DNA of 58,580 nucleotides, filler included, from Sphacelaria rigidula (lineage: Eukaryota): NCBI GenBank assembly GCA_964200075.2. It is 8 parts of 8 records of this genome, joined end to end, with 100 filler letters (N's around TTAATTAATTAA, not from the genome) between each part and the next. Parts side by side here need not be neighbours in the genome. Positions count along the whole stretch, not along the records: positions 44,012 to 51,246 come from CAXNAA020015837.1; positions 51,347 to 58,580 come from CAXNAA020015838.1; 6 more parts are not named here. One strand, 5' to 3'. Positions 5,868 through 56,631 of the stretch are shown here, piece after piece. The position numbers were made by a program, and so were the translations under genes. Position 1 is the stretch's first letter. Each line of letters begins with the position of its first letter. Under the pieces are notes generated by a model. The model made no database searches and was not told the DNA's origin. It saw nothing but the letters and a program-made list of their open reading frames with translations.

Positions 5868-6345
5868 CTAAGGCTACTTCTTATGTAGCAAAAACCAAAA
5901 GTTTTTGAAAAGTGCATTTTTGGCCCTTCTCCGTCGTTTTTCCCCCGAAAAGAGGACGAGGCGGCTGGTGACACCTTGGAATGACTTGCTCTACTCGCCG
6001 AGACGGTTCCTGAGCACCTTTGAGTTTGCCGTAGGTCACGGTCTCGTTTTTCGCCAAACTTACATTTGCAGAACAAACGGTCAAGTTACCACAAAAATGT
6101 CAGTTTTCCCACCTGTTTTTAAATAACTCGGCCGTTTGTTGTTGAGAATGCAAGTTTGGCCAAAAACGAAACCGTGACCCACGGCAAACGCAAAGGTGCT
6201 CAGGAACCGTCTCGGCGAGTAGAGCAAGTCATTCCAAGGTGTCAACAGCCCCCTCGTCCTTTTTTCGGGGAATGGACGACGGAAAAGGCCCAAAAGTGCA
6301 CCTTTCAACAAGTTTTATTTTTTTATGCATAAGAAGTAGCCTAAG
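5868..6345. repeat. Imperfect ~480-bp foldback, copy 2 of the same unit
   Basis: ggctacttcttatg...gacttgctctactcgccgagacggttcctgagcacctttg pairs with caaaggtgctcaggaaccgtctcggcgagtagagcaagtc...cataagaagtagcc. A further partial unit lies at ~6490-6580. Confidence 0.85.
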
Positions 6346-7236: not shown

Positions 7237-7336
7237 NNNNNNNNNNNNNNNNNNNNNNNNNNNNNNNNNNNNNNNNNNNNTTAATTAATTAANNNNNNNN
7301 NNNNNNNNNNNNNNNNNNNNNNNNNNNNNNNNNNNN
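7237..7336. other. Artificial contig linker
   Basis: N44-TTAATTAATTAA-N44 (stops in all frames). Confidence 0.99.
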
Positions 7337-13014: not shown

Positions 13015-14394
13015 AGCTTGAAATTGAACAGCATAAATGTGTTTGAATTATTCGTAACTGGTCCAGCTCCATATACTATAGAAACCAGTTGTTTTTCGTA
13101 TGATATAAATCGGGTTTTTCTCTTTTTTTCCGATTCATTTCCTTCTCGTTCATTTTTTCTTCCCCTTCTCTTCCCCTGTATTCTTCCGTTTTTCTTCGTG
13201 TCTCGTTCTTTGCTCTGTTTATTCAATTTGCTCTTGTCTCTCTTCCTTTGCCTTCTCCCTTTATCGACTTTCCTTCTAGTGAACACAGTATTTACCTCCC
13301 TTTTTTTTTCCCCCCACCTTGCGTACGTCGAGGTTATGACCATCATGGATAGATCCACCAGAGATGAGTTAATATACGACCACCAATCAATCAAACCAAT
13401 CAAATCCTGCTCTATTCCAACATATCGTATCCATCCTTCAACTTTGTGTGTGCCCTCGGTGCGGAAGTAACGCCCCAAACCCGGCGACGCACCATCCTTT
13501 CTCCCGCAACCCTTCCTGAACCCTTTCGAGCGGGGAGCAATTGTGACCGTTTCCCGGTGGGCTCGTGGATATATGTCGAACGCAAACGCTTGTGGATCTC
13601 GTGTAATGATGTGCGAGTGCTCCTGTGGCGAAGTGAAGACTGCCAACTGCTGCATTGGTCACAATGCTTCACACCTCGGACAACTTATGAGCCACCTAAA
13701 ATAACTAATGCAAGATGACTCTCAGATACCTTGTCCACAACCACAAATTACGTGACAACAGGGTCTGAGAAGCCAAAGCACTGCCTTTACACTACTATTC
13801 CGCGTGGTCGGCGTCCAGGACTGTCGAGAGCAAACATGAAAAAAAAGGGGGTCAAACGAGCTACAGTAGCTCGTGATCCGGATCACTACGCTAGCAGGAA
13901 GTAACATTCAGGTAGCTCATGAGCTTTCCGACGTGTGAAAGGGTTATGGCCCCCCGTGAGTATCAGGTAACCCATAAGTTAGCTCCTACAGGAGTGCTCC
14001 ACAAGGTGTGTGCAGTACGTCGGTGTTGAATGGCTGTCATGCTCACTTCATAACATGACTTGCTAGATACACAGGTCGCACTGAATGGGCGATTCGAGGT
14101 CAGCAAACATCATCCATCACCCCTGACAATGTGAGACCTATAAAGATCTGCCGGACTGTCACCTCACCCAACCCCCCGACCCCTTGTTGAGGTCGTGAGA
14201 CACCCATGAGGCAATGTAACCCGTGTCTGTCTCAGCAAGTGACGTTACCACAAAATGGAGCAACTCATTTGGGGTTATTATCCATACGCAAGATAATTAG
14301 TGCCCTTCGGGCCGAAATATCTGGGCAAGATACAGATCACCCCCCATGTCACTCGCCGAATACATCACGGCGCTTCGCGCTTGGTGATTGATTG

Positions 14395-14535
14395 CGAGCT
14401 TGGTCTGGCGAAAACCCGGTGTGCTCCGTCACGGGTTTATAGGGATGAGAGGTCAATGGTCTTATGGCTGCGACAGGCAAGATCGTGAGTACCACCCCCC
14501 CCCCCCCCCCCCACCCCCCCCCCTTCACGCCCCCC
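14395..14535 (+). mobile_element. Poly-C-ended repeat family P copy
   Basis: ...gaggtcaatggtcttatggc...gatcgtgagtac followed by a C-run. Homologous to 36677-36750 and 52296-52338. Confidence 0.7.
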
Positions 14536-14571
14536 CCACCAGTGGGGAACAGAGAGAAGACTATAGACAAA

Positions 14572-14671: not shown

Positions 14672-17478
14672 TAGAACTTCGCTGCGGAAAGGTTGACCAA
14701 CGTTTCCCCCACACTTTGTACCAGCTTCTATCCTTCAAGATCTCGAGAAGTCTACGTACCGCTTTGTGCTCCTTCTCGTAGGTCATGTGGTTAGTCATCG
14801 GAAAGGTGATTATTTCATGCGTGCAGTAGTGTTACAGGATAAATAATGACCCTGTAGAGGAGACTATGAAGTGATTCAACTGCGGGTCCTGACACCTTAA
14901 CCCGCTCAAGGATGAGGCACTAAAGACATGGGATAGGCAACTAACTGCCTGTGATCCCCTTCTGTTCAGAAGAAAGCCCCAAACGATCTCTGAGAGCAAT
15001 ATTCGCCACTTGATAATGAACTGCACTCCACCATTGCTGACCGCTGAATGCGACATCACCCACCCTTCATCAAGAAATGACTCACATGCTATACGCAGAA
15101 CTCATTGCGTGCCGCTCCCCTCCTGGAGAGCTGTCTGATCGGACCCGACATAGAAGAGGTATGCATGGTCTTGGGCGTGATGTGTAGAGAGTCTGCATTA
15201 TAACTGTAGTCGTTGCGAACTATTGTACGGGGTCCTAGGATGCCTTGCGTAAACGATGCAACCCATCCAGAGGCTACCTCACACACCCTAGCCGATGCAT
15301 ACTTTTCTTCTACGACATGGTGACCAAATTCCGAGAGAGCAGGAGAGGCGAACGCAATCACCCAGCATCAAATTTACCTCCGCTGAGGCTACATATGAGC
15401 TGTTCTGCTTTTGTCACTGCGGTCGTCTCTGTGAGAAATATTGCAAGGCACGCAGTGCTGCTCACTGTCTGTTCAAATGTTCAAACCTTCAGCGGGTGTT
15501 GGCTGTGCGTATTGAGTGATCAAGCACGGTGCTTCCCGACCCCGTCATCCCAATGCGGTAGTTGTTGCCGTGCTGTAGTGTATCTAAACTCTCTACGGCG
15601 AACTCGGTGCGATGTGCGCTGAAGAGTGCGTGAGCAGTTGTACTGCTGCATGCTCTGTGTCCGTCCGCACAAAACCTGGGTGGGATCAAAATGCCTGTGC
15701 AACTTTCAAACAATCACGTGACGATAGGGCAGCTACCTGTTTCGTCGTCTCCGGTACTTCGGTTTTTGTTGAGTGCGGAGATGGGGGCAGACATGCAAGG
15801 CGAGTGAGTGCAGATCGGGACAAAAAAACTCACAGGGAGCTGCTGTATCCTCGATGATTGAGGGTATCAGCTGTCGGTTGCGCAGCGGCGCAATGCGTGT
15901 GTCTAGTGCCAGACTTGTGCTGTTTTTGACGCCTGAGCACACTTTCCAACAGGGTCCGCAGTGTTTGTTTACTCGTAGTCAGGAAGTCACCCACGACTAT
16001 GTTTCTGTTGTATTTGTCCGCAGAATGTTTGTATAGTACAGCACTCACAACATGCATGAGACTTGAGGCCGCGGAGCAATGCACTTTGCCTCAGCAAACA
16101 AAGGCATACAGCGAGCCTTGCCACTGGTGGCGGAGTCACCTTTCCTAATATCCTGTTTCTCCAGCATCAACATCGCAGTGCTAGTATCTATGGTGTGCAC
16201 GAATTGTGTTTACCTGCCATAATCATTTGTCTCCCCGCACACAAGCGCTCATGTATTCCTTGCTACTGATCGATACAAATAATCGATACACTGCACCATG
16301 CAAGTTGAGTCGATGAGCCCGCAGTGCATCGAGAAACATTGAGCTGAGGGAAGCAAAGGTGACTGGTAATGAAACGCGGCTCTGAGCACTCACTCGACTG
16401 GCAAGTCGAACATGAGTGGTGCAACTATAGACTACACACTTAATACAGGGGAGCACGATGAGACCTGTTCGTGCACAGTAGGTTTTGGGACATTGTGCCG
16501 AGGGCTTGAAAACTAGAACACTGTCCAGGTATATACAAATTAAGTGGTTGCTTGGCCGGACTGAACACAACGAATGTGCACTTTTTTTGTGCGAGTCATT
16601 GAACATATTTTTCCCAGGCAGCAGCGGCGATCAACATTTACATGGAACGAGGCTCACTACAAACCTCATGTATAATCTATACATGCTAAGACACGCCCTT
16701 AACGAATCCATCAACATGGAATTTTAACCCAAATGTCAAAATACACCTTACATGCAATGCAAAAAATAAAAATAAAAGCAATCGCCGCCGCCATCGGAAA
16801 AATTGGTCGTAACTCCCATAAAAAGAACGGTATATCCGGTTGTACTCTCCCACAAGCGACCCACACGCCGTAATTTCTCCCCCAACCCTCCACGTGCTGG
16901 AGGTTCCTTCCTTTCAGGCTATAAGCGCATAACTATCTATTACAAACATGAGTACCCACATAGCTCATACGACATAGCGTAGCGGACACAACGATCAACT
17001 TGACTCACATATTCTTCTGGGCACAATATTGCCCGAACGGTGATACATGAATTGCTTGCGAGACTAATCGGAACTAATGAAGTTGTTTTTTATGCGAAAC
17101 ATGAGCTCAGTCCCTTTTTTTTCTTTCATTTTTCTCTCCTTTCTTTTTTTTCTTCCCTTGTTGGACATGAACGGTAATGACACGACATGTACCTAGGTCA
17201 TGGCTCTCCTCTGAACCGGCATGTAACTCTCTCTCAAAAAAAGACACACGATGCTCACTCATCCCATCGATAACAACTATGAAACGCCAATCAATTTCAA
17301 CACCTAACATGACAACATTCTGTGTCGGCAACGAGATCAACAGAACTGTGACGGTTTAAGAGACAACCAACTAGACTACTGCCGTCACAGACCACAGATA
17401 CCAACAGATCCCAACGAAAAAAAAAAGAGGAGAAAAAAGGAAATGGCTCATGTCCCGCATAAAAATAAATCATTATTC

Positions 17479-17735
17479 GACACTTTCTACAACAGCCCCC
17501 CCCCAAAAAACCAGCCCAAGAGTGTCACGACACAAATGGCCATACAGCGCCTGATGTTCAGGTTCATGCTGCATGAAGCGCCTCATATCGGCGACATTGG
17601 CTAGAACGAACACAAGCGTGGGAATTCCTAGCTGCTCATTGTGATCGGCTTTCCCATTTCAATTTACGTGAAGATTATGCCTCCCGAAACCATGCACTTG
17701 AATTTTGTTTTGGGGGGTGTATCGTAGAAAGCGTC
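17479..17735. mobile_element. MITE family G (GATAGCCCCC-type TIR)
   Basis: gacactttctacaacagcccccc...ggggggtgtatcgtagaaagcgtc. Homologous to 21841-21906, 29888-30025, 32796-33046 and 50264-50556. Confidence 0.7.
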
Positions 17736-21840: not shown

Positions 21841-21906
21841 GACACTTTCTACGATAGCCCCCCCCCCAAACCAGCGAAAAGTGTCACGAACAAAATGACC
21901 ATACAG
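21841..21906. mobile_element. MITE family G, truncated by contig end
   Basis: gacactttctacgatagcccccc...gtgtcacga...ccatacag matches 17479-17547. Confidence 0.65.
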
Positions 21907-25829: not shown

Positions 25830-26010
25830 AGGGGGGAGGGGGGGCGTTCTCATTTGTTGCTTGTCTTAGTCGTTTGACCACTGACTACGCATCCCTTTCG
25901 AGACGGAGCACCGTTCCTACTCCTGATACAGACACCTCCAACATTACGGTGCGCATCACGTTTCTTCCATACATTACACAAAAAATATATTACATATCTT
26001 ATCCCCCCGT
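25830..26010 (-). mobile_element. Family P copy in cullin intron
   Basis: G-run then gcgttctcatttgttgcttg...gcatccctttcgagacggagcaccgttcctactcc. Closely similar to 46615-46910. Confidence 0.8.
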
Positions 26011-26164
26011 CCTGTTTCGCCGTCTGTTGCCACAATCCATCTCATAGTATAGCCATAGTTTTCTCCCTACTGTCTAACGCATCAAACGATTTCATGCCAT
26101 ATTCGTTCGCGTCCCGCATTTGTCCCTCTAGCACCTCCCGTTCCTCCTTGAAAACTCACATACT

Positions 26165-26307
26165 CATACCCTGGATAATGTAATACACAGTTAAGAAGTG
26201 TACTGCATACAGTATAGACTATTGCACCTATCGCAACAGGCAATAGATTCTATACTGTACGCAGTACATTCTTTAGGATATAGTCCATTGTCATTATCCA
26301 GGATGTG
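26165..26307. mobile_element. Short hairpin MITE family C
   Basis: cataccctggataatg...cattatccaggatgtg with inner gtactgcatacagtataga/tctatactgtacgcagtac arms. Other copies at 28901 and 41936. Confidence 0.75.
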
Positions 26308-26842
26308 CACATTCTGCCACTATATGACCTCTCTAGTGCTCTGCCACAGGGGTAGTTATGTGCACCTACTTTCTCCACACGACTACTGGTACATCTCCTT
26401 TTTGGCAAGTCCACATCCCCCACCCGAAATCGCAGTTTCAATTTTTTCGCCGCGTCCAGGGGGGACTGGGCGAGAGGGGGAAATGGACACGAAACCAGTG
26501 GTATTTACCACTTTTGGTCGATTAGAAACTTCCCGGAATTCCATCACTTGATTTGAGTACAAACACCGATATTCGGATCTTTAGCGGGGCTGACAGTCCC
26601 AACTGCCCCTCGCGTGCGCAGAACTCGTTTTGAGTCGTGCCAACGCCAACCCCTTTGCCCAGGGAAAGCTTCACACACCCCTCGCCCGAGGGTTCTCGGT
26701 ATGCCTTGGGTTGTGGCGCTGCGTTATTATAAAAAAGATGTTTCCAAGAAATTTCGTCGTCGACCAAGTGGTAAACACACCTCAAAGAAATAGAGAGAGA
26801 GAAAGAGAGAGAGGAAATACTGAAAAATTCTTCATAACATAC

Positions 26843-28900: not shown

Positions 28901-29010
28901 CACACTCTGGACAACATATTAGATTATCGAAAAGTGTAGTGCGTACAGTATGGAATATCTTGTCTGTTGCCATACGCAATAGTCGATACCGTACGCAGTA
29001 CATCTTTTGG
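28901..29010. mobile_element. MITE family C, decayed
   Basis: cacactctggacaa...gcgtacagtatggaat...cgtacgcagtaca matches 41936-42074. Confidence 0.65.
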
Positions 29011-29341: not shown

Positions 29342-29890
29342 GTCGAAGGATACTACTGTAGTGGAACGCGCTTGCAAAATCCGAGCCGTTTTATTTTTAT
29401 TTTATTTAGAACACGCATCAGCTGTAGTTTGAATATCCCTCCTAACGGTCCCAAACGAGGTCTGATCCAGCGACGGAAAGTGCTGGCACCCTCTCCCTCA
29501 GATAAGATTTGTGACAACCTCAGGGTTAGGATTAGATCCCAGGGGAAGTCCTGAGCTGACAGATGGTTTTCTTGGAAAGCAGTCGTTTATTGTAACGGGT
29601 TTAAAGCGTTCAAGCAAGGAAATTTCGATTTTGAATAGGGAAAGATGTACTACGATACCCCTGAATACTATTCTACATGTTTCATTGAGAGCAATGTTCC
29701 CCGAATACCCACAGTTGTCACAAATCTTATCTGAGGGAGAGGGTGCCAGCACTTTCCGTCGCTGGATCAGACCTCGTTTGGGACCGTTAGGAGGGATATT
29801 CAAACTACAGCTGATGCGTGTTCTAAATAAAATAAAAATAAAACGGCTCGGATTTTGCAAGCGCGTTCCACTACAGTAGTATCCTTCGAC
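29342..29890. repeat. Apparently perfect 177-bp inverted repeat with 195-bp spacer
   Basis: 29342-29518 is the reverse complement of 29714-29890. The same peptide appears in ORFs on both strands. Confidence 0.93.
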
Positions 29891-34358: not shown

Positions 34359-35036
34359 TCGAGCTTCCTCAATAAGTAGAGCAAGGAGTCACGGCGTCGT
34401 CAGCGATCAACACGTTCTCAAGAGGATCGGCACCGCTTTTCCAAGCAGAAGACGGACATCGCACCAACGGGAACTTCAAGTCCTTTCTCGTCAATCAAAT
34501 TCAAGTTCTGTGGAGGTCCATCAAGATCAGGCGCGTCGGTATCATCCACGTCGCCAAGACATCACTACAGCAGTTCAACGGAGTCAGCTCAAGACTACCT
34601 CTCCACGCTCATCTCGCTAGTGAGCATCTTCGGCCATCAACAAGATTGACAATCGACCGCATCGCATCGGCAAGTTCCGAGCTATTCCTCCGCATTTTTG
34701 TTGCGTGCGAGTTTTTTCGAGAAAAGAGAGATACGTCGTCATCAGCAACGACGCTCAGCTACGTCGTCTTCAGCTACGATATCATCAGTTCGGCAGGTTC
34801 TTCTAGCGACACTAGCCAAGAGGCAAGGACTTCGGATCCATCAAGCCTATCAACTGGCATTCGCAGCCAACACCCGTAAGTAACCCACACCTGGGTGCAT
34901 CATCATCTTCTGTTGAGGAACTGTCAGTTTCTCTTGGAATTTTTCAACGTCATCGTACGACTACTGTACGAGTACACGTCATCTACACGGACGGCAACAG
35001 CAATAGCAACAACAATAGTAACAGGATTACCGTAGC

Positions 35037-36576
35037 ATGGGGGAGTCATTGACAAATGCTGCTGCGGCGGATGCAGTGGACAAGCTCGTCAAGGCTGTTG
35101 GCGGAAATTCCAACGGGACGGACTTCGATGTCTGGTCCCGCACAGCACAGTCCGTGATCAGCATGCGACATTCGGGCATTGCAGGCATCCTGGACGGCAG
35201 ACCATGTCCGCTGACCATTTACAAGAAAACCAAGGGCAAAGCTGGCAAGCGCAAGAAACAAGCAACCTCAAGCATCGAAGATGAAGAAGAGGATGAAGAC
35301 AAGGATGCAGCAGAAGACTCAGCACTGCATCCCGAGCAACAGCAGCAGCTTGCACCAGATGAGCCGAGTTCAACAAGCGGCGAGACTCCTACTTCTGTGA
35401 TGTGGGAGATGGATGACAACGTCCAGAACGTCGAGGACATCCGGGAGTGGCACATGGCCAACAAGATCCTCTTTCCACTTCCTGTTCTTGAGTACAGGAC
35501 CGGCAGCAAGCTTTCTCCGAAAGTACAAGCCTAGAACAGGCATTTTGCCAAACGGCATCGCCGCTTGGAATGGTCTGGTGGAAAAAACCAGAACCCTTCA
35601 CGCCAGCCGCGTCGAATTATGGCAAAAAGGCTGTCTAACATGAGAATGCAGCAAGGTCAAGGCCCGGACGTCTTGTGCAACCAGCTATTTTCGTTTCGAG
35701 ATGAACTGGCGGAGATGGATCGAGTGATTGCGGACGACGAGATACTGGACATCATCCTGGATGGGCTGACGGAAGAGTACGCCCAGATTCAACTGCTTGC
35801 GGAATCGCAAGGCACTTTCAATCTTGAAGACGCCATGTTCACCATAAGGAACATGATCGCAACCCGTGTCGCAGAAAACGGGCTTTCACGTGCAGCGAAG
35901 GTCGCACCTCGGCGATGACCGCCACAACGGCAAAATATTGCAACTACTGCAAAAATCCTGGTCATGACATCAATAACTACTTTAAGCTAAACAACAAGAA
36001 GAGCACAAGAAACAACGGAGGGGGAAGAAGTAACTGGTGGTGCTCCTTACACAAAACCAGTCTTCACGACAATTCGACCTGCAAGGCGCAACAACACTGG
36101 GGCAACGATCCTGACGATCAGCGGCAGCAAGGGCAGCGCGGCCGAGGACCACGTCACAACAGCGGGCCACGGCAGCAAGGACAAACCCGCTTCAGCGACA
36201 GCGGACGAGGCCGCTTCAACAACAACGGTGGACAAGGAGGAGTGAACAACAACAGCGGACAAGGTGGTAACAACAACAACACCAACGCGGCAGCACACAC
36301 AGCAACAGCAACACCGGGGTCTGCTACTGTGGTGGGACAATACAACACAACCGGATCATCTACACCTACTTCCGCGACTACCACCACTCCACAGGCTTCA
36401 GATCCATCGCCTTCAGACCCTTCACCTCCTGCCGAAATGGGTTACTCCGTCGTCGCCACCAGCAGCCTGAACACCGCCGCTGCTCCTTCGCGCTTCACCA
36501 TGACTGTCGACACCGGCGCCAGCAACCACTTCGTCGACCCTGACTTGCTTCCAAATCTTCAGCACCGGATGATCGA
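35037..36576 (+). pseudogene. Ty1/Copia gag-protease, frameshifted and truncated by contig end
   Basis: Copia gag-like segments (NGIAAWNGLVEK; LDIILDGLTEEY), zinc knuckles CNYCKNPGHDINNY (last Cys lost) and CSLHKTSLHDNSTC, protease motif VDTGASNHF. Frameshifts near 35475, 35585 and 35910. Confidence 0.9.
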
Positions 36577-36676: not shown

Positions 36677-36750
36677 GTAGTCATATGACCATCGACCTCG
36701 CGTCCGTACAAAGCCGGGACGGAACACGCCGGGTTTTCGCCGGACCAGGC
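36677..36750 (-). mobile_element. Family P copy at contig start
   Basis: gtagtcatatgaccatcgacctcgcgtcc...gacggaacacgccgggttttcgcc is a reverse-complement match to ~14400-14470. Confidence 0.7.
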
Positions 36751-38279
36751 GGGGGGAACCGCGGGAGGGGGATTGGCGGGGCTGCGGGCGGGAAAGTATG
36801 TGTGTGGGACTGTGAGGGGATCGTCGCGACGCCGTGGCGTGCATCAAAGTGTGACAGTTGAACCTCATGGAACGCACGGCTTGGGCAGCGAGTACTTTCC
36901 TTTGTAAGATGGGCACAGTACCACTTTTGGTGCTGTGCGGTGGAAAATTATTGATTTTACATGGGTCGACCCCAAAACCGCGTAGTAACAAAATAACGAG
37001 TCGAAATACGACTACACGATACGGATGTGAAAGTGAAAGTGACGTCATGCTGCGAGGGTAGCGAAGACAGATTGTACACGCTACTAAAACACTGACTCTA
37101 CGTACGATGGCGCAACATCTCATAGGGGTAGCCGTGGCTGCTACTAGCCTAAACGTATCACATTGTATCGTCATTATTTTTCGGATATTAAAGGAGGGTG
37201 TCGGCGTGTTCTTGTGTCATTATTTTTCAGGCATTTCCCGGTTTTACCATAATTTACTATCACCATCATCATTTTGTCATTGGTATTCTCTCATCGTATG
37301 TCACTTCATGTCCCTACTACATGATAATGCTGCGGTCAGCGTGTGAGAGTGGAACGTTCCTCTTGAACTTTCAAGTGATGAGGAGTGAAACACACGCTAA
37401 CTATTTAACCACGAAAGCCGACGATGTGACAGGACATATAGCGATTACATTGTATGATGACCACTCCCGCATCTCGTCGACGTTTCGTAAGTTTCTGGTT
37501 CTACTCACGCCCTCGCTTTGTCAACGACGGAAATAGTATACCCCTCAGAAACAAAATGTACAGAACTATATCCGCTGATTGTCGAATCCTCGGTTCCGCC
37601 TTAACAGGAATCAGTATGTACCAGCTTAACTCTCGGGCGCCTCGATGTATTGGAAACATAGCGAGCAACGCGGAAAACGTGTTTTATTATATGGATGCAT
37701 TCGAACCCTAGTTTTCAGCACAGACCACGACCGGGCACGAAGAAGAGGTACAGCGCTGCAATACCGAGTAGAGTACGGTTCAGAACAGCACACAGCATGC
37801 AGAAAACGACAACAGCCGAGAGCAGCGTCTCAGCGCAGGCAAGCGGGAAACGAAACAGCGTCTTTCATGGGATATGTACGGTACAACAGCAATCGTCGCG
37901 GGAGAAATCGCTACTCTCCGAACGTCTTTTGTAGGAGACTACACTCTAGCATGAGCGAGCGGTGCAGCACTGTAGTACAGTGCACCGTGGAGCACCGCCG
38001 TGTAGAGCACAACACACAGCGACGGAGCCACGGAAACACCTCTGCCGACCACTACCGGAAGAGCCACCCGTACTCGTCAACAATTGAAAAAAAACACTCA
38101 CCGCCCCGTCGGTAGTCCTCACCAAAACAGATGCCCCGTGGATGAACCCTGAAACAGATTAAAACCGTACCGCTCAATAGAAATAGCGCTCGTTGGGCTG
38201 GAACGGTTATTGAGGCCCGACAAATTGAAGGCTGTGCTTCCCTTCCGCTCTCAACTACTCGAACGCCAAGAAGCGCTTT

Positions 38280-39390
38280 CCCACTACCTTTTACACGTGG
38301 GTACGCGGACCGTGCGCTCCTCCGAGTCGCGGGCAAAATCTCTCATTCGCTCCAGCAACGCCTTTACGTGAGCGTTATATTCGAATACCTCGAACAGCGC
38401 CAGACCAGCACCTACCATCTCGATTCCGACCCATTTGCAAAGCGCGTGGCGGAAGGCATCACCTCTAGACTCTTCCACGCGCACGTCCACATTACTTATG
38501 TCTGCTAGCGCGTGCAGCAGGGAGCATGCTTCCGAGACGTCCAGCCTGAGCGTCACGCGGCTGAGCCGTGACGTGATTGCTTCTCTGCGGGCGCGGTACA
38601 CCGCCATTCCGTGCATGTTGAACTCCCCCCCCCCGAGGCATGCATGATCATGAGTACACCCCCAAGCCTTTACAAACTTCACTTTGCATTCCTCGCGGAC
38701 GTTTGAAGCCCCCACGTGTATGTCTGCGCCATTCCTTGGCCGCTCCCGGAGGTGCCGCTTCCGCTCAGCGTTTCTCCCAGCATCGGGAGAACTTTTCCCT
38801 GGCTGTTCGTTCCCGCTTTCAACGTTGCTTTGGGATATGCTCCGAGTGCGATAAGCCGTCCAGTTGAGTGAATCTCGTCATAATGGACGCAGTTCTGTTC
38901 TCCGACTACCGAGTCAATGCTCAGAACGATCTCGAACCAGGCCCACACCATGGCTACACTTCTAATCACGCCCAACAGCGACTCCTTCACATAGACGACC
39001 CGCTCAGGGTGCCGGTAAGAGGGTACGGCGTCAGGGGCAGACTTCTTGCCTGCAAGGCTCATTGCTGTCGACACTGTTTTTTCGGAGATCCCCGAAATTT
39101 TCGGAAGTGGCAAGGTACCTGATGGCTCTCGAATGCTTGCAAGCGCCAGAGCGTATTCACAGGGCAGCTCTCCGAATAGCTACGTTGCTGTTCGAATTGT
39201 TCGGACGTCTCAAAAAATGAAGCTTCGGAAACGAAATCAAGCCGCTTCATTCTCGGAGACGTCTGAACGCAGAGTCCGAAAACTCTGGAAACTTCTGGCA
39301 TCGCTGAAGACGAAAATGTTGGTAACAACGAGCCTAACAAGTTTACGGCCTTCTTCCGCGAGGAATCGATGATCACAGGGACGCGGATAG
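38280..39390 (-). pseudogene. Decayed coding-like region of unknown family
   Basis: Overlapping 143- and 144-aa ORFs with protein-like composition. The frame extends upstream through a few stops and is interrupted by a family P insert near 38640. Confidence 0.35.
38625..38668 (+). mobile_element. Family P micro-insertion
   Basis: C-run, ggcatgcatgatcatgagtaca, then CCCCC. Confidence 0.7.
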
Positions 39391-44011: not shown

Positions 44012-44189
44012 ATTGGTGGGATATCTTCAACGTACTGGGATATCCCAATCCTAGTACTCGTTGGGGGCAAGCAAACTTCGGAGGTTTTCCGAACGGTGTC
44101 GTCGGGTCCCCCGCGCTCGTACCTTGCCAAGCATAGTACTTGTTCGGATTCCACATATATCCCTGTTTTCGTGAGATCGAGAATAGACC

Positions 44190-45706: not shown

Positions 45707-46562
45707 TGTCGCACTTGAACTGACCTCCCAGGGATCCAGCCGTGATTACATGCTAGATAGACGTACCAAAAAAAAACTGAAACACGCGCTGAAACTAAAA
45801 GAAGGAACAGAAAAAGTCGAACAGAATGACGTAGTGGACTAAGACGTGAAAAAACAAATAGAATAAAAAGTCAACAAAAGCAAAGCACAGAAAGAAGTGG
45901 CCGATCTAAAACAAAAAGGAAGGATAATAACGTATTCAAACGCAAACATCTTCGAAACACAATATAGGGGGTGGACACCGTGAGCAGCAAAGTTCCCATC
46001 CATGTCTACCATGGTTGAGGAATGTTTCCTGGCGGGGGACATTCCTTATCCAAGGGTGGTGGTTTCTGCAATTTCTCTCGCCGATTTTACCTGTTTTTTC
46101 GTCTCCGATATTCCACAAGACTCCATCACTGTTTTGCGCAAATTATACATCAATTACTCTCGGATGGAAATGGCTTGAATGCAGGTGAAGCATCAAATGA
46201 AGGAAAGGTGGGGATAAAGATACACACGATATTGCAATAGTTTCATACGGGAGCACCGTATCTGGATGATGTTTGTTTCATCCCTGAAGTGACCCTCGCA
46301 CGGTCGAACACCCTTGGGAAATATCTGAGGAAGATTTTTATTAATGAAGACCGTGGATCACGCCGACAAGCGTCATACTCCAGTCTCGTAACCCCCGCGG
46401 CCGAACGACTCAGGAATGGTACATGCCACCGCAACCGAGCCTCCACACAGAAGAAGCAGGGGATACGTTGACGTCAGGGCATAACTTCACATCTGCGAAG
46501 GTACGGATTACTTTTACAACCATGGACAAGAGCGAGTTCTTGGACGATGGTACATACAAGTG

Positions 46563-46910
46563 TGGGGGGTGTACTCATGCTCTTGTATGCCGTAGTCACA
46601 AGGGTGGGTGGGTGGCGGGGGGGGCGTACTCATTTGTTGCTTGCCGTAGTCGTTTGACCATTGACCACGCATCCCTTTCGAGACGGAGCACCGTTCCTAC
46701 TCCTAATAGAGACACCTCCAACATTCTGGCGCTCATTACTTTTGGGGGGGGAATTTGTTGCTTGCAGTAGTTACTTAACCATTGACAACGCATCCTTTTC
46801 GAGATGGAGCACCATTCCCACTCCACATAGAGAAACCTCCAACGTTTTGGCGTTCGCTATGGTTTTTCCATACATTCCGCGAAAAACCTTTAGATATCTT
46901 ATCCCCTTCA
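46563..46910 (-). mobile_element. Three stacked family P copies
   Basis: G-run-led units at ~46563, ~46615 and ~46745. The first is flanked by acaagtgtggg/acaagggtggg. Confidence 0.8.
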
Positions 46911-47331
46911 TGTTTCATAAGGTTAATGGGAGGGGGGAAGGGGGGCGTATCGAATGACACAAAATTACTCAAGTTTCACCATTGAATCAACGCAAAGATT
47001 GCAGTATCCTCTGTAGTGACAGAATCTTGTATATATGCATGCACGCCATAAAATTAGCAGCATATAACGGAAATTATTGATAAAACATGCACACACATAC
47101 GTACGCATGAACACGCATGGTACGAATGCCACATTCAGCATCTTCCACATCACTCACCCTCAAGGGCCTCATCTGAGTCGCTCAACGACAGAGGGTGAAA
47201 TGACACGCATACCAGTGATTCGATGGAATCGCATACCTAGGCATCGTCGATCACGTAGCACCTCCGGTATACCCTAGAGAGCCGAGTTTTTCTGGCGTCG
47301 TGGTGCTCCAGAGCGTAGTGATACAGCATGC

Positions 47332-47775
47332 AACACGGGATTTTACAAATTAGGAATGGTGTTTTTTTTAGGATGATAACCCGGAGGGTTAAAATCTTCG
47401 TATCCACACCAAATCTTCGGAATATAGTTCCACTCCTTCACCTACTTGTAGCTATTGACAACTACTACACGCCATACAAATTTGAATCCTGATAAGCGAC
47501 ATATTGGGGTCTTAGGTGAAGAAACATTTTGGGGGAATTTAGATGATCCGATCAAGTTGCCGAAAAATTCCCCATAAATGGTTTCTCACCTAGGACTCCA
47601 ACGTTTCGGTTATCGCGATCCGAAATTGTATGGCGTATGGTAGTTTTCAATAGCTACGAGCAAGTGAAGAAATGGAACCATATCTCGAAGATTTGGTGTG
47701 GATACGAATATTTGAATTCTCCGGGTTTCTCATCCTCATTAAAGAATTCATCCCCAATTTGTAAAATTCCGTGTT
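47332..47775. mobile_element. Long-TIR foldback MITE family F
   Basis: AACACGGGATTTTACAAATT...AATTTGTAAAATTCCGTGTT. Homologous to 56194-56631. Confidence 0.85.
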
Positions 47776-48526: not shown

Positions 48527-48672
48527 GTGGGTGTACGCGGTTTGTAAACGTTGTGCAGTTTTACGAAAAACAGCAAATGAAATGTTCCCAGAGGGACCCA
48601 GGGTTGGTCACAAGACAGACACACCCAAAGTTACCAAAATGGGAACGCTTGCTAGAGAAAAAGAAGAGTGGG

Positions 48673-48745
48673 GAGGGGGGGGGGGGGAGGGGGACACTCA
48701 TTTGTTGTTTGCCTTAGTTGCTGGACTATTCTATTGATCACGCAT
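48673..48745 (-). mobile_element. Family P short copy
   Basis: G-run then cactcatttgttgtttgccttagt...gatcacgcat, flanked by aagagtgggg/aacagtgggg. Confidence 0.65.
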
Positions 48746-48899
48746 AACAAAAACAGTGGGGGGGAAGCGAAGCAATGGAACAAGTAAGTGGAGTGAACTG
48801 AGAAAGAAGAGGAACAGGAGAAACGAAACGAAACACGAAAAGGAGAGGAGAGGAGAGGAAAGGAGAGGAGAGGAGAGGAGAAAAAGTGGCAAATTATAA

Positions 48900-49175: not shown

Positions 49176-49354
49176 AACAACATAGACACACATGTATACA
49201 TGGACTGCTGAACAACCCAACCAGTAAGTCCGACACTGAACCCAACCCGGACCGTGCCAGTAACCTCAAACCCTAAGCGCCTTTCTAAAAGGCATGGGCC
49301 GCCGTGTCCCGCCTTCTTTCCCACCCCCGAGTACCCCCAAAACGTGTCGTACAG

Positions 49355-49573
49355 CTGAAGGACCAGCTGTCACTCCTGGATGTCGATCACCTACGGGGCG
49401 GCGGGGCTTCCTCCCCGGAAGACAGCGATGGACTTGACAATGTTGTGCCTGTGCTGGGAAAGGCGGTTAATGGCAAGTTTTTGCGGAGAGATTTACAGCT
49501 CACCGGGGTATTGAGCGCGCGAGAGCTGGGCTTGGCATTGGAAGATATCGGGGTAACTCTGCAGCCCTCGGAG
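49355..49573 (+). CDS. EF-hand-like protein, exon D
   Basis: TACAG acceptor and GAG|GTATGT donor. 73 codons ending ...KFLRRDLQLTGVLSARELGLALEDIGVTLQPSE (degenerate EF-hand). Confidence 0.82.
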
Positions 49574-49594: not shown

Positions 49595-50070
49595 AACAGT
49601 AGTGGATTTCCGAAAATGGGGTTGAAAAAATGAAATGAGGTTGAACTCAAAAGCCGTCCTTTCCCCAGCCTAAATTGATGACAAATGGCTTTCATATGGA
49701 CAACCCCATCCCTCCCGACCTCCCTAAAAACTATTTCGAGGGGTTTTTAGCCTTCCGTTCCCCCCAAGGGTATGTGCGAAAGCATGATTCTTGGACTAAA
49801 AAACTTCCTTTTGTCACCCCGAAATCGAGGCAAAAGTGTGCTTTCGCACATACCCTTTGTACTCGTGATCATGCATGCCATAGCCATAAAGACCACATAC
49901 CCTTTGGGGGAGCGGAAGGCCAGAAACCTCCCGAATTAGTTGTAGGGAGGTGGGAGGGGATGAGGTCGTCCGTATGAAAGTAATTCGTCATGTATTCAGG
50001 TCAGGGAAAGCATGGCTTTTTGAGTTGATCCTCATTTCGTTTTCGAACCCACTTTCGAGAACCCACTGTT
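49595..50070. mobile_element. Long-TIR foldback MITE
   Basis: aacagt...gaaatgaggttgaactcaaaagcc pairs with ggctttttgagttgatcctcatttc...cactgtt. Inner arms also pair. Confidence 0.75.
49860..49893 (-). mobile_element. Family P 34-bp micro-insertion with 13-bp TSD
   Basis: CACATACCCTTTG at 49847-49859 and 49894-49906 flanks tactcgtgatcatgcatgccatagccataaagac. Confidence 0.85.
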
Positions 50071-50263
50071 AAACTCCTCGCTCCGTGTTGTCAACAAGGT
50101 TCATGATATGCACTGCATGCTTCATGCTACGGCGCACCACGTCGGCTGCTCTGTGCCGTTTTTGTTGTTCATGTTGATTCCCACTCTCTATTCCTTTCCA
50201 GCTCAAATTGCAAGGCGATGGCGAGGAGCAAATTGAGCCGGAATGCGAAAGCGGTTCGGTAGG

Positions 50264-50556
50264 AATATTGAGTAATGCCGAGATAGCCCCCCATCCCCCC
50301 CCCTCAAATCAGCCCGAATATTGCCATGAAGGGAATGACCACACAGCGCATGATAGCTGGTTCCGATTTGCGTGAAGCGCCTACTATGGGCGACATTGGC
50401 GGAAACGCATCCGAGCGACGGAGTTCCCAGCTGCCCGGTGTACTCAGCTTTTTTTTCATTTTGTGTCGCATGTAGATTTTGTCTCCTCAATACAGCCACT
50501 TTTGTGGGGGTGGGGTGAGGGTGGGGGGGGGGGGCTGTCGCGGCGTGACTCTATTA
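50264..50556. mobile_element. MITE family G
   Basis: gagtaatgccgagatagcccc...ggggctgtcgcggcgtgactc, with shared interior tgaagcgcct/ggcgacattggc. Confidence 0.7.
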
Positions 50557-51159
50557 TGAAAAGCGGAAAATATCGCCCAAGATAAACATACGAATCCACA
50601 AAAGCGCAAAAGAGCAAAAGAGCAAAATGCAAAATATGTGTGTGTGTTGTGTTATGTTGTCTTCTGGACGCCGGTTTACACCGTTCGGTATATGTGGGTG
50701 CACCAGCCGGGATCACACATGAGGAAGGTCAACACAGGATTTTGTTAATTCAAGTGTAGAGTCAAACAAATGGAAACCGACGTCGACTTATGATAGCACC
50801 TATACTTTTTCTGCACGCTGTACGTACTGTAATACCAAAACGCATACAGGTTATTACCCTTGCTGCAAAGTTCCGACCACCGGGGGACAGAAATGCACCC
50901 TTTCCTGATAGGGCGGGAGGCATAGCTCCGAACATCGAAGGACTAGATGACACTTTCGCCGAGTATGCACCCTTGGTGAGGTGAGTTGAAATGGGCGGGG
51001 TAGATTGGGATGAGACTCCTCTTCCAGCGCCTACAGGCTGGTCCTAACCAGAAGAACGAGAAATCGCCGCCTCCGTTTTTCTGCAAGATCTAGTGGCCAT
51101 ATATTAGCATCTTTACACCCGTCGATATGGTCAAGGACAGAAGAAAGCACGTTTCTTGG

Positions 51160-51246
51160 GAGGGGGGGGGGGGGGGGGCGAACCTTTTTGTTGTCTGCCT
51201 TAGCCCTTTATCCGTGAACCCACCCCCCCTTTCGACCCGGGGCACC
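51160..51246 (-). mobile_element. Family P copy at contig end (low-quality sequence)
   Basis: G-run then ...tttgttgtctgccttag...ccctttcgacccggggcacc. Confidence 0.6.
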
Positions 51247-51346
51247 NNNNNNNNNNNNNNNNNNNNNNNNNNNNNNNNNNNNNNNNNNNNTTAATTAATT
51301 AANNNNNNNNNNNNNNNNNNNNNNNNNNNNNNNNNNNNNNNNNNNN
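51247..51346. other. Artificial contig linker
   Basis: N44-TTAATTAATTAA-N44. Confidence 0.99.
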
Positions 51347-51708
51347 CCTCCGGGTTCTCATCCTCAATGAAAAGCACCATCCTCAACATAGATGATCGGC
51401 TGTTTACCAGACTTGAAACATTTCATACGCTGGCCGTTGCCATAATCCGAACCGCTACCCGTATCTTGGTATGCGCTGCTAGTGATCCAGCTGGAACCGC
51501 TTGTTCAAGCTATTGAATTTCATGTGTATTCTTGTACATCGTGCGACTACGGTCGCCACAGCAAAGTATCAGTTGTCTTTTTCACGACCCCGGAATACTG
51601 CCTTCCATGCACAACAATATATACCCATATACATCAATTACTGTCTCAAACCCAACACCCTTCCTGTTACTGTTTGTCCGTGTGGATCTCACGACTCCGC
51701 AAAACAAT

Positions 51709-52248
51709 TAGGCTTTTGGTTTTTATGCGCATTTTTTATTTTTTCATGCGCGTTTTCCCATTGTTCGTGATGTTTAAAAGGGAACATTATGCGCCGGTTT
51801 ATGTGTATTTTGGCGAAATATGCGGGACTTATGTTCCTTTTTCGCGTCCTTGTTGAGGCGGTTCCTGTCGGGTTCCGCTGTTTGATGTGAAATATGACAC
51901 ACTTTTTTTTTATAAGTTTCACATGAACATAAAGTAGCTCACATACAGCACCATAACAGGTATCAGACCCGCAACAAAGTTCAAAACAAGAAATTATGAA
52001 CGCAAACGCCACGACTCCACGATCAACGCCACATGGAGCACCCGTGGGCATCTACTAGCTGCTGGGCATGGGGTGAATAATCCCGTTGGAATTCTATATG
52101 CGCCAAGTTATGCGTAAAACTCAGCTTTTATGCCTTCGTTATACTGAAATCTCGGAAAACATATGTTTTTCAAAACATGCAAATGCTTATTATGCGCATA
52201 ACCCCGTTTTATGCGAAATTATATGCGCGCAAAAACAGCAAAAGCCTA
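51709..52248. mobile_element. hAT-type MITE (540 bp)
   Basis: TIR TAGGCTTTTG...CAAAAGCCTA, 8-bp TSD AAAACAAT/TAAACAAT, TATGCG subterminal motifs. Confidence 0.85.
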
Positions 52249-52295
52249 TAAACAATGGGACCTCTGAAAAATATATCCAGTAGCTTGCTACAGTG

Positions 52296-52338
52296 TACTC
52301 ATGATCATGCATGCCATAGTCATAAGACCATAGACCTC
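52296..52338 (-). mobile_element. Family P 43-bp micro-insertion with 13-bp TSD
   Basis: GCTTGCTACAGTG at 52283-52295 and 52339-52351 flanks tactcatgatcatgcatgccatagtcataagaccatagacctc. Confidence 0.85.
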
Positions 52339-52346
52339 GCTTGCTA

Positions 52347-53193
52347 CAGTGGGGGACTCTCTGAGTAGTGCCGGTATGTGCCCACCACGGACACCGGCAC
52401 TACTCAGAGAGCCCGGCACTACTCTGAAAAGTGCCAAAACAGGTGCAATTGAGGGCTCTTAATACCTCAGTAGTACCGGTTCTGTCACTACGGACGACCG
52501 TCCGTTCGTACAGTGCTACGCTTGCCCTTCGTGGGACCAGCGGCAGCACAAAACGGACGAGAACCTTTGTTTCAAGGGGTTTCGATAGGATACGACACGT
52601 AAGGTTTCGGGGTAGCAGAACTGAGCCCAATTTTTTTTGTTTTTCACATTCAACTTGACTGATCCTGTTCACAGGTTGATCATTTCCTTCCCTACTAGCA
52701 TAACAGCAGCAGTACGACCACAAACGTTACTCATGCCGAAAGACCTTCCCGACAAAAAACAAGGACACATCTGCACCCGACGCAACTAAGAAGGTGCGGC
52801 ATTTGGTGTGGAAAAAGACTCACGAAAGAGTACACCGCCCACCAAAAGGAGTGAGCGAGAAAGAGTGAACCGCACCCCTTTTCACTTCCTACCGGCTACC
52901 GAGACAAGGAGAGAGATAAACAAACGACCTCGAAAATAAAAACACACCGATGCAGCAATCTAGACGCGACTCCTCCCGTGGCTGTGCCCGGGCGTAGATG
53001 CTACGGGCTACCCGATAACGGTGATAACCGGCACTGTTGAGGGTACAAAACCGTTCAAACCAGCACTACTGAGGGTCATCTTTCAGTAGTGCCGCTTGGT
53101 ACTACTGCGAGCTCTGGCTGTGCCCGGAGATTTTACCGGCATTATATAGGTCGTTGGCACTATTCAAACAGCACTATCGAGAGCCCCCCACTG
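52347..53193. mobile_element. Non-autonomous Tc1/mariner-type element (847 bp)
   Basis: TA-[CAGTGGGGG...CCCCCACTG]-TA with repeated GCACTACT/AGTAGTGC subterminal motifs. Confidence 0.85.
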
Positions 53194-56193: not shown

Positions 56194-56631
56194 AAACACG
56201 GGATTTTACAAATTGGAGGTGGGTTTTGTATTGGGGATGAAAACCCGGAGAGTTGAAATCGTCGTATCCCCACCAAATTTTCGAAGTATTCTTTCAGTTT
56301 TCCCTTGCTGGTAGCTATTTGCAACTACTACACGTCATAAAAATTAGATTTCGATAACCGAAATGTCGGGGTCCTAGGTGAAAAGCCACTTTTGGCGTCC
56401 TGGGGGATTTCAGGTGTCCGATCGGACGCTAAAAGTGGGTTTTCACCTAGGACCTCGACACTTCGGTTATCGAAATCCGATTTTTATGACGTGTAGTAGT
56501 TGTAAATAGCTATCAACAAGTGGAAAAATGGAAGCATACTTCGAATATTTGGTGGGGATACGACGATTTCAACTCTCCGGATTATCATCCCCGATACAAA
56601 ACCCATCCCCAATTTGTAAAATCCCGTGTTT
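56194..56631. mobile_element. Long-TIR foldback MITE family F
   Basis: ~200-bp arms AAACACGGGATTTTACAAATTGG...CCAATTTGTAAAATCCCGTGTTT form an almost complete hairpin. Confidence 0.9.

Follow-up and report, generated by a model that had tools for sequence, protein, structure and literature searches.

The short repeats that adjoin G- or C-runs in the genome of Sphacelaria rigidula are, with a probability of about 85%, 5′-truncated insertions of an APE-type LINE and of its non-autonomous partner, which integrate at G-tracts. The structure and polarity of the copies, their target site duplications (TSDs), the G-tracts that are present at their targets before insertion and the lack of A-tails were observed directly, and the sequence data support a retroposon inserted by target-primed reverse transcription (TPRT), whose coding strand has the C-run at its 3′ end. 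Elements of this kind are already catalogued in Ectocarpus, and the families of S. rigidula are further members.

Copies in the window

The window is the whole stretch of 58,580 nt analysed here (GCA_964200075.2), which is composed of eight separate contigs with N-spacers between them; the span 49847-52351, to which an earlier note had assigned a truncated insertion family, straddles the spacer at 51247-51346. All of the roughly 11 places listed in that note for five of the eight contigs are family copies (pieces 2, 4, 6, 7, and 8). They belong to two families, A and B, with a 3′ end common to both, rather than to the single family claimed, and the variable 5′ truncation noticed at the time is real while going far beyond the given range of ~25 to >170 bp, as is evident from the long window copies (14195-14492 and 25844-26463) and from full elements of 5.3-6.1 kb.

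Family A is represented by a 5′-truncated copy of ~300 nt (14195-14492, + strand; 79% over 300 nt compared with another genomic A copy), followed by a long interrupted C-tract found in the C-run scan (14495-14537), by a copy that is incomplete at the contig start, the distal end of which is a recurrent ~95-nt stop followed by a G-run (36677-36752, − strand), and by a 22-nt end (38637-38658, + strand) that has a C10 run (38625-38634) on one side and a C5 run on the other. A further 33-nt end of family A (46570-46602, − strand) is the first of three tandem copies. Its flanking 11-nt repeat (46556-46566 and 46598-46608) is imperfect, with one mismatch and a 5-nt start that overlaps the element itself, and the G-tract following the right-hand repeat doubles as the tail of the next tandem copy. 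This second copy is a 120-nt 3′ end of family B containing both 3′ hairpins (46624-46743, − strand; 92% compared with the genomic copy L277, 78% in tblastn), and the third is an older 165-nt family B end (46753-46916, − strand; 77-78%, 65% in tblastn) with a G8 at 46744-46751. The longest family B copy (25844-26463, − strand; tblastn and blastn) comprises ~480 nt of the LINE 3′ part and encodes the C-terminus of the ORF, matching the intact homolog P0002 in tblastn at 60% over residues 1261-1360 (E 2.6e-29) and also over residues 1202-1250; it is split by an unrelated inverted-repeat insert (26165-26304), and its G-tract lies at 25831-25844. A 35-nt end (48696-48730, − strand; 86%) is located between G-tracts at 48670-48693 and 48758-48764, and a degenerate end, preceded by a G17 (51162-51178) and incomplete at the contig end (51179-51246, − strand; 70% over 60 nt, E 0.014), is the weakest of the window copies. 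Two internal fragments of the autonomous LINE at contig starts had escaped the earlier list, namely 14672-14829 (− strand; 82% over 158 nt) and 44012-44067 (− strand; 87.5% over 56 nt), both compared with the full-length copy L161.

Two small insertions have exact 13-nt TSDs. At the first, CACATACCCTTTG (49847-49859, + strand) precedes a 34-nt family A insertion without its own C-tail (49860-49893, − strand), and recurs at 49894-49906, continuing into the target's G-run (49894-49910, + strand); the family terminus matches only the last two TSD bases. The opposite arm of the inverted repeat in the host sequence (49752-49776, − strand) is an empty paralogous target containing one copy of the TSD sequence, then G6, and no insertion, and 30 contigs in one run and 51 in another exit the window at 49859 directly into the G-run. 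At the second, GCTTGCTACAGTG (52283-52295, + strand) is followed by a 43-nt family A insertion, again without its own C-tail (52296-52338, − strand), and by the right-hand repeat (52339-52351) and the target's G-run (52339-52355, + strand); here TSD end and family terminus have 3 nt in common. These two pairs thus bear out the direct repeats described for the smallest copies, the third pair being weaker, and both right-hand repeats continue with four more G, in line with the G-rich run that had been described.

A Pfam search of five window ORFs gave no match, and one exon yielded an EF-hand lead only (below 0.9). The brown-algal character of the genome was read from the Ectocarpus-like RT. Among the 27 C/G runs of at least 7 nt in the window, 11 are located no more than 45 nt from a copy, in zones covering ~3.6% of the window, and 16 do not. 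The idea that the elements seed the C/G homopolymers is better phrased as the duplication of existing G-tracts.

The autonomous LINE and its partner

In the 244-Mb genome the exact end motifs occur 2,215 times (21-mer) and 4,150 times (20-mer), while reversed control motifs do not occur at all. From these matches 101 copies were sampled, including the first 30 + 30 pattern matches by contig order (L176-L235) and 20 + 20 further listed matches chosen away from contig ends (L236-L275), a sampling by exact motif that is biased towards young copies. Ten copies were dropped because of N or contig ends, leaving 91 usable ones, and length counts omit another 4 A and 5 B copies. Another family copy adjoins 21 of the 101 sampled copies, and the 5′ truncation lengths are strongly peaked rather than smooth.

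Family B corresponds to the 3′-terminal part of an APE-type, RTE-X-like LINE of 5.3-6.1 kb with a single endonuclease-reverse transcriptase (RT) ORF; a parent RT, which the earlier note had proposed to look for, is thereby identified, and its endonuclease is of the APE type. The stop codon lies 5 nt ahead of the C-run on the coding strand; RT and a C19 share one strand in L108, and one-strand continuity from endonuclease to tail is present in 11 of 20 fetched regions. Three near-full copies (5.3, 5.8, and 6.1 kb) have a C-run before their start and a C-run at their end. As in APE-type LINEs, the AP endonuclease lies upstream of the RT on the same strand, although in the own copies Exo_endo_phos_2 stays below the Pfam cut-off (E 1e-3 to 1e-4) and only RVT_1 exceeds it; the 3′ end is fixed, the 5′ truncation variable, and the TSDs vary in length (7-20 nt). 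In the intact homolog P0002 both domains are above the cut-off, and L161 covers this protein over 1,360/1,360 aa at 61%. Intact homologs are single ORFs of 1,328-1,360 aa, no separate ORF1 is evident in the LINE, and the best PDB match by sequence is L1 ORF2p (E 6.6e-21). Because no intact ORF is present in the fetched own copies (longest open stretch 432 aa) and these copies are only ~80% alike, we do not claim present-day activity. In a quick RT tree, calculated with SH-aLRT support only and without a named RTEX reference protein, the LINE groups with Ectocarpus proteins, and ten further non-LTR RT loci of the genome fall elsewhere; the RTE-X label was chosen by excluding other entries of the Ectocarpus table in the available part of PMC12477816.

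Family A is the non-coding, non-autonomous partner of this LINE, with a length of ~570-600 bp. It resembles the LINE by 77-79% over the last ~57 nt and by 78% over 40 nt of the 5′ head, with no protein similarity to the LINE elsewhere; a protein-like reading frame was rejected as coding (best E 0.94 against the LINE protein). The similarity of the two ends suggests that A may be mobilised by B. A ~50-nt direct repeat of a sub-terminal segment is present in 10 of 25 examined 5′ ends and absent in 12, so that two 5′ forms exist. A Pol III head derived from tRNA, 5S or 7SL, which would define a SINE in the strict sense, was not found, and the head instead resembles the LINE 5′ end. A search of Rfam with E up to 1 returned no matches for four loci holding A and B ends (L049, L051, L057, and L108), and therefore no known ribozyme or tRNA head is assigned.

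Target sites, tails and the 65-nt stop

For a strict TSD call, an exact flanking repeat had to span 8 nt or more and to include four or more bases other than G. Such TSDs flank 23 of the 91 copies, compared with 57 of 8,190 mismatched flank pairs (0.7%); a laxer threshold gives 31/91 compared with 2.5%, with lengths of 7-20 nt and a median of 11. The 68 copies without a strict TSD are explained partly by the inability of the test to score G-rich TSDs. A distal G-run (G5) is present in 65/91 copies, compared with 4.1% in the control. The fixed 3′ end, the variable 5′ truncation and the TSDs, which the earlier note had named as the signature of TPRT, are thus all present, the TSDs being enriched over shuffled pairs.

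According to the mechanism that we propose, the ORF protein would bind a predicted stem-loop ~40 nt from the RNA 3′ end, within the coding sequence, and the endonuclease would nick the G-rich strand inside a G-tract or at its start. The freed DNA 3′ end could then pair with the C-rich RNA terminus, sometimes via 2-4 bases only, and prime reverse transcription, and the TSD would result from a second nick ~7-20 nt upstream. The few C's of the RNA most likely stem from read-through into the donor's genomic C-run. Each insertion would copy part of the G-tract and thereby create a new target, which would lead to tandem stacks, and most LINE events would halt at ~65 nt, right after the upstream hairpin has been copied.

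The tails bear on two alternatives to this mechanism. The G-rich tract at the fixed end has a median of 10 nt, with G4 within 13 nt of this end in most copies (42/50 A and 45/51 B), a few tracts reach 35-60 nt, and none of the 101 sampled copies has an A-tail. Such tracts are consistent with true poly-C tailing, in which a nucleotidyltransferase would add untemplated C's to the RNA, comparable to the poly-A of L1, that are subsequently copied into the insertions, and in 6 of the 23 TSD-called copies the tail indeed exceeds the target tract by 4-17 nt. In the other 17, however, the tail does not extend beyond the target tract, the median excess is ~0, three sampled copies and both TSD copies of the window have no tail at all, and the tracts are often broken by A, T or C, so that we regard poly-C tailing as improbable; both sides of this question are weakened as homopolymers are poorly measured in short-read assemblies. 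Since the G-run is already present in empty paralogous sites and 17/23 tails are not longer than their targets, we prefer integration primed at the G-run to the addition of a long poly-C tail, which retains one of the two options that had been offered together. The preference for G-tracts might alternatively arise from priming and not from cutting, if nicks were promiscuous, or breaks occurred at G-tracts or G-quadruplexes, and only ends pairing with C were extended. This would alter just one step of the proposed mechanism and is a possibility to be taken seriously, although we lean towards cutting. The L1 endonuclease is described as promiscuous in vitro, with a consensus partly set by priming (PMC12809410, available in part), and relatives with the same 3′ stem-loop differ in their tails, which are (C)n, (TC)n, (ATTT)n or (TAA)n; on the other hand, copies with only 2-4 matching bases (49847, 52283, L211, and L259) still lie immediately before the G-run, which pairing alone does not require.

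The stop near 65 nt is sharp: 28 of 46 B copies end at 60-71 nt (21/46 at 64-68 nt or 71), counts of adjacent 17-mers fall across it from 3,751 to 794, and loose contig ends accumulate at the corresponding position in the 120-nt window copy (46688-46693) in four of four runs. These tight ends, at which TSDs directly begin, could point to an independent minimal SINE that has a source gene of its own, or to an RNA-cleavage product, rather than to abortive LINE copying. We consider this unlikely, as no diagnostic base distinguishes 29 short from 37 long copies at positions 21-63, the ends are ragged over ~8 nt, and the four loci searched gave no Rfam match. Regarding the stem-loop assumed in the proposed mechanism, a descriptor placed 33-48 nt before the tail, a range picked after the data had been seen, fits 16 of 27 relatives compared with 0.2 expected. 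Among distant relatives 13 cells are changed on both sides of the stem (0/500 shuffles), in a test that is partly circular as 12 of 14 rows were drawn from the pairing descriptor; ten closely related sequences revealed no covariation (464/500 shuffles as high), and 3′-end folding energies were no better than those of shuffles (z −0.1 to −1.4), with two of the five stretches (L049 and L167) being mostly flank and uninformative. A Penelope-like element of the Chlamys clade was the first lead; Chlamys inserts into (CA)n and (C)n (PMC8557442, available in part) and is present in Ectocarpus, and the ~50-nt repeat of family A is reminiscent of a pseudo-LTR. This reading was dropped on finding the APE-RT parent and is now highly implausible: the parent carries an AP endonuclease and a LINE-type RT instead of the GIY-YIG endonuclease and PLE-type RT of Penelope-like elements, Pfam reported no GIY-YIG family, Chlamys-1 of Ectocarpus is annotated with an (A)n end (PMC12477816), and the repeat is missing from 12/25 ends. 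Penelope is thereby refuted for family B, and for family A it is ruled out by the 3′ similarity to the LINE.

Known systems and meaning for the genome

The novelty suggested for the family, which by the earlier note's own account a curated match would remove, does not hold, since the kind is curated in Ectocarpus as RTEX-1, RTEX-2, and RTEX-N1. RTEX-1_Ec32 and RTEX-2_Ec32 possess a single EN-RT ORF, a size of 5.5-5.9 kb, a (C)n 3′ end and a C-rich TSD, whereas the other autonomous LINEs in the Ectocarpus table end in (CAA)n or (CA)n (PMC12477816). The elements described here share ORF, size, (C)n end and C-rich TSD with them, a match by description and not by DNA consensus. The Ectocarpus proteins, the nearest named ones, cluster with the present copies in a single clade (SH-aLRT 100), and their unusual C-terminus recurs in these copies; being 40-60% identical to the decayed copies, they represent a different family in another genome. 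RTEX-N1_Ec32 (607/604 bp), the non-autonomous and most abundant Ectocarpus family (PMC12477816), resembles family A in its size of ~600 bp, lack of an ORF, tandem copies, thousands of copies, a LINE-like ~60-bp 3′ end (83%, compared with 77-79%) and a weak likeness to the LINE 5′ end; family A, likened by description, differs by its two 5′ forms with or without the ~50-nt repeat. For RTEX, empty sites are not analysed in the available part of PMC12477816, and neither a model of priming nor a stem-loop nor a stop at 65 nt is given there. In the open-access literature searched, a (C)n-ended LINE is described only there, and neither a ~65-nt stop nor a stem-loop common to differently tailed relatives was found.

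Stringent LINE/SINE pairs are characterized by a 3′ stem-loop, short-repeat non-poly-A tails and a LINE 3′ end common to the partner (PMC3747384), and SART1 is counted among such stem-loop systems (PMC7265360). The pair studied here is similar in these three respects, but its tail unit is a single C, its 3′ UTR is 5 nt long and its stem-loop lies in coding sequence. Green-algal RTEX elements end in (CA)n, (CAA)n, (CCAT)n, (ACAATG)n or (CTTGTAA)n (PMC3747384), and RTEX is merely listed as a clade in the available part of PMC5753468. Human L1 also combines APE and RT and pairs the nicked strand with the terminal run of its RNA (PMC12809410); here the pairing is G/C and not T/A, the tail is short and mostly matched by the target, and no separate ORF1 is evident.

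Tentatively, and with more doubt than confidence, we suggest that a brown-algal LINE lineage has retuned its endonuclease and RNA terminus to pure G-tracts, a G/C mirror of L1 with a self-feeding cycle, whose structure-gated main product of ~65 nt is made thousands of times. Since such elements had been described before, the main yield of the finding is an annotation for thousands of short repeats; families A and B account for part of the genome's G/C tracts and explain contig breaks, a contig end lying within 72 nt of the element's fixed end in 17 of the 30 top loci. The mechanistic extras provide a testable system: the 65-nt stop could reflect a distinct step in TPRT, and because the stem-loop is constant while tails are swapped, the clade is a natural series for separating cutting from priming in LINE target choice. 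Should an APE endonuclease indeed nick G-tracts, it would offer a specificity that is new to insertion tools based on retroelements.

Two repeat families: a LINE and a non-autonomous partner

All 11 places at which the earlier note had listed a repeat copy are confirmed, distributed over five of the eight window pieces, and the copies fall into two families, A and B, rather than the single one that had been claimed. The pieces are contigs of approximately 7.2 kb from a eukaryotic assembly of 244 Mb in 27,214 contigs; the spacers between them (N44-TTAATTAATTAA-N44; 7237–7336 and six more) join unrelated sequences, and one, 51247–51346, falls inside the span first assigned to the repeat. The suggested genome-wide count of the two end motifs yielded 2,215 and 4,150 exact matches and none for the reversed controls. 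The repeats are real and abundant, they were rightly read as a retroposon moving by target-primed reverse transcription, and their kind is already curated.

Searching for a parent by extending copies succeeded: on the C-rich strand the TTTGTTGCTTGCC variant (B) leads first to a Cys/His motif in an open frame and from there to a reverse transcriptase (RT) and then an AP endonuclease, with the C-run at the 3′ end of this ORF. In 11 of 20 fetched regions, a single strand joins endonuclease-side sequence to the 3′ tail. The stop codon of the LINE lies 5 nt ahead of the C-run, so that the opposite orientation weighed in the earlier note, in which the G-run is a 5′ end, fails. Every copy fetched from this genome is decayed, with no open stretch beyond 432 aa. 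The full length of an intact database homolog of 1,360 aa is nonetheless matched, at 61%, and this homolog has both domains (endonuclease and RT) above Pfam cut-offs. Three near-full copies of 6.06, 5.83, and 5.3 kb are each preceded by a C-run; in two of them, scanned for tandem repeats, a 63-bp unit close to the 5′ end is present 8 and 12 times (fetched loci L161, 476–977, minus strand, and L167, 485–1247). In the window, the protein C-terminus is encoded at 25853–26155 (E = 2.6e-29), and this copy is split by a palindromic insert of about 140 bp (26165–26304) with kin, repeat family D20, at 28924 and 41960.

Family A, the non-autonomous partner, is non-coding, about 570–600 bp long, and similar to the LINE in its last ~57 nt (77–79%) and in ~40 nt of its 5′ head (78%). 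Among 25 of its 5′ ends, ten open with a ~50-nt repeat of the family's own sub-terminal segment, three with part of it, and the other 12 start at or inside the head. In metagenome contig L282, an Ectocarpus-like LINE has a family-A-like end (2719–2805) immediately after its C-run; thus, the partner family and the stacking habit exist in another genome.

Open frames in the window at 35022–36574 contain a CxxC/H knuckle-like motif and one that is protease-like, reminiscent of LTR-retrotransposon gag/protease; a Pfam search gave no match. Long inverted repeats with arms of 110–199 nt, 81–100% complementary (29342–29890, 5868–6345, 47378–47727, 56194–56631), are probably MITE-like; the first has its start precisely where a contig begins and is possibly an artefact of assembly.

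Target sites, tails and truncation

Sampling by exact end motif gave 101 copies, 91 of them with clean flanks. Strict target-site duplications (TSDs) were found in 23/91, compared with 57/8,190 mismatched flank pairs, and a G5 run no more than 30 nt from the truncated end in 65/91, compared with 4.1% of random 30-mers. Two of the direct repeats reported earlier are exact 13-nt pairs (49847/49894 and 52283/52339); the third pair does not match perfectly and overlaps with element sequence. Empty paralogous sites of the 49847 insertion, namely the other host-repeat arm (49752–49776, minus strand) and two sites in fetched locus L005, all already hold the G-run, and contigs from two sequencing runs go from 49859 directly into G; BLAST for an empty paralog of the 52283 insertion returned none. 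The distal G-run beside the truncated end is the original target. The 49847 insertion sits in a repeat just downstream of an EF-hand-like signal at 49346–49573, probably a host exon (atlas score 0.86, a lead only).

The fixed-end tract is not longer than the target tract in 17 of the 23 TSD-called copies and exceeds it by 4–17 nt in six; several copies have no tract, none of the 101 has an A-tail, and 21/101 adjoin another family copy. We read insertion as G-tract priming against a short C-rich RNA end: a nicked G-tract would prime on this end, whose C's, as we infer rather than observe on the RNA itself, would probably be templated by the donor locus. C/G homopolymers are not so much seeded, as was proposed, as duplicated: of the 27 runs of seven or more C/G in the window, 11 adjoin copies and 16 do not. 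A and B have repeatedly inserted into another interspersed repeat, family D14, which has an internal G-run (17496–17547, 21858–21906, 50298–50346; loci L205, L223, L272). Other inverted-repeat elements with G-runs have served likewise, namely those that carry the insertions at 49847 and 52283. In a ~61-nt copy at locus L211 (G000 C35), the space between truncated end and TSD is filled by two telomere-like TAACCC units.

Truncation is variable, as described earlier, but peaked rather than smooth. In family B, 28/46 copies (~60% of the LINE ends sampled) stop 60–71 nt from the fixed end. This stop falls shortly upstream of a GAAA-capped hairpin, and majority bases are identical between short and long copies. 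Genome-wide, a 17-mer of family B at positions 48–64 occurs 3,751 times and the next (67–83) 794 times; loose contig ends cluster at window 46688–46693 in 4/4 sequencing runs, one probably the assembly's own source. Family A measures at most 53 nt in 28/46 copies, with a minor group at 94–107 nt.

Relatives, 3′ stem-loop and known elements

A metagenome scan recovered 79 loci. Three (L276, L277, L282) share the identical stop-plus-5-nt junction followed by C8–10 and, in a quick tree, group in a single clade with the copies of this genome and with proteins of Ectocarpus (SH-aLRT 100). The nearest named proteins are those of Ectocarpus, and on that basis, not on that of a host gene, the host is probably a brown alga. 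One 90% cluster in this clade includes an Ectocarpus protein with the C-terminus of family B; a second consists mainly of Ectocarpus proteins. Among more distant relatives the tails differ and include (TC)n, (ATTT)n, (TAA)n, and (TCAC)n. A stem/internal loop/stem descriptor lies 33–48 nt ahead of the tail in 16/27 visible-tail relatives (0.2 expected), and two-sided changes exceed all 500 shuffles; both tests are biased in favour of structure, since the tested sequences were themselves the source of descriptor and window. Close relatives gave no stem-loop covariation, and 3′-end folding energy is unremarkable. In metagenome loci L286–L294, L301, and L308, which have the LINE-type stem-loop and 3′ UTRs that are very short, the tail is (TC)n or (TCTTTC)n; many of their contigs both start and end in (TC)n, which suggests microsatellite targeting.

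The supplementary table of one study describes Ectocarpus RTEX-1 and RTEX-2 as LINEs of 5.5–5.9 kb with a single EN-RT ORF, (C)n 3′ ends, and C-rich TSDs (PMC12477816). The same source gives RTEX-N1 as non-autonomous, 607 bp, with 60 bp at the 3′ end that resemble the LINE, weak LINE 5′ similarity, and tandem copies, and its text as the most abundant Ectocarpus family (PMC12477816). Compared by description, the LINE and family A show each feature listed there (PMC12477816), so that the novelty once supposed falls away; the RTE-X label and identity to a curated Ectocarpus consensus are indirect. Chlamys PLEs likewise favour (C)n (PMC8557442), and this identity was rejected on the endonuclease. 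A literature search turned up no work on mechanism for G-tract priming, for the 65-nt stop, or for the LINE 3′ stem-loop. In the boldest reading, to which we give a probability of about one in three, the endonuclease would be specific for G-tracts, the cycle would feed itself, and the 65-nt product would be gated by structure.
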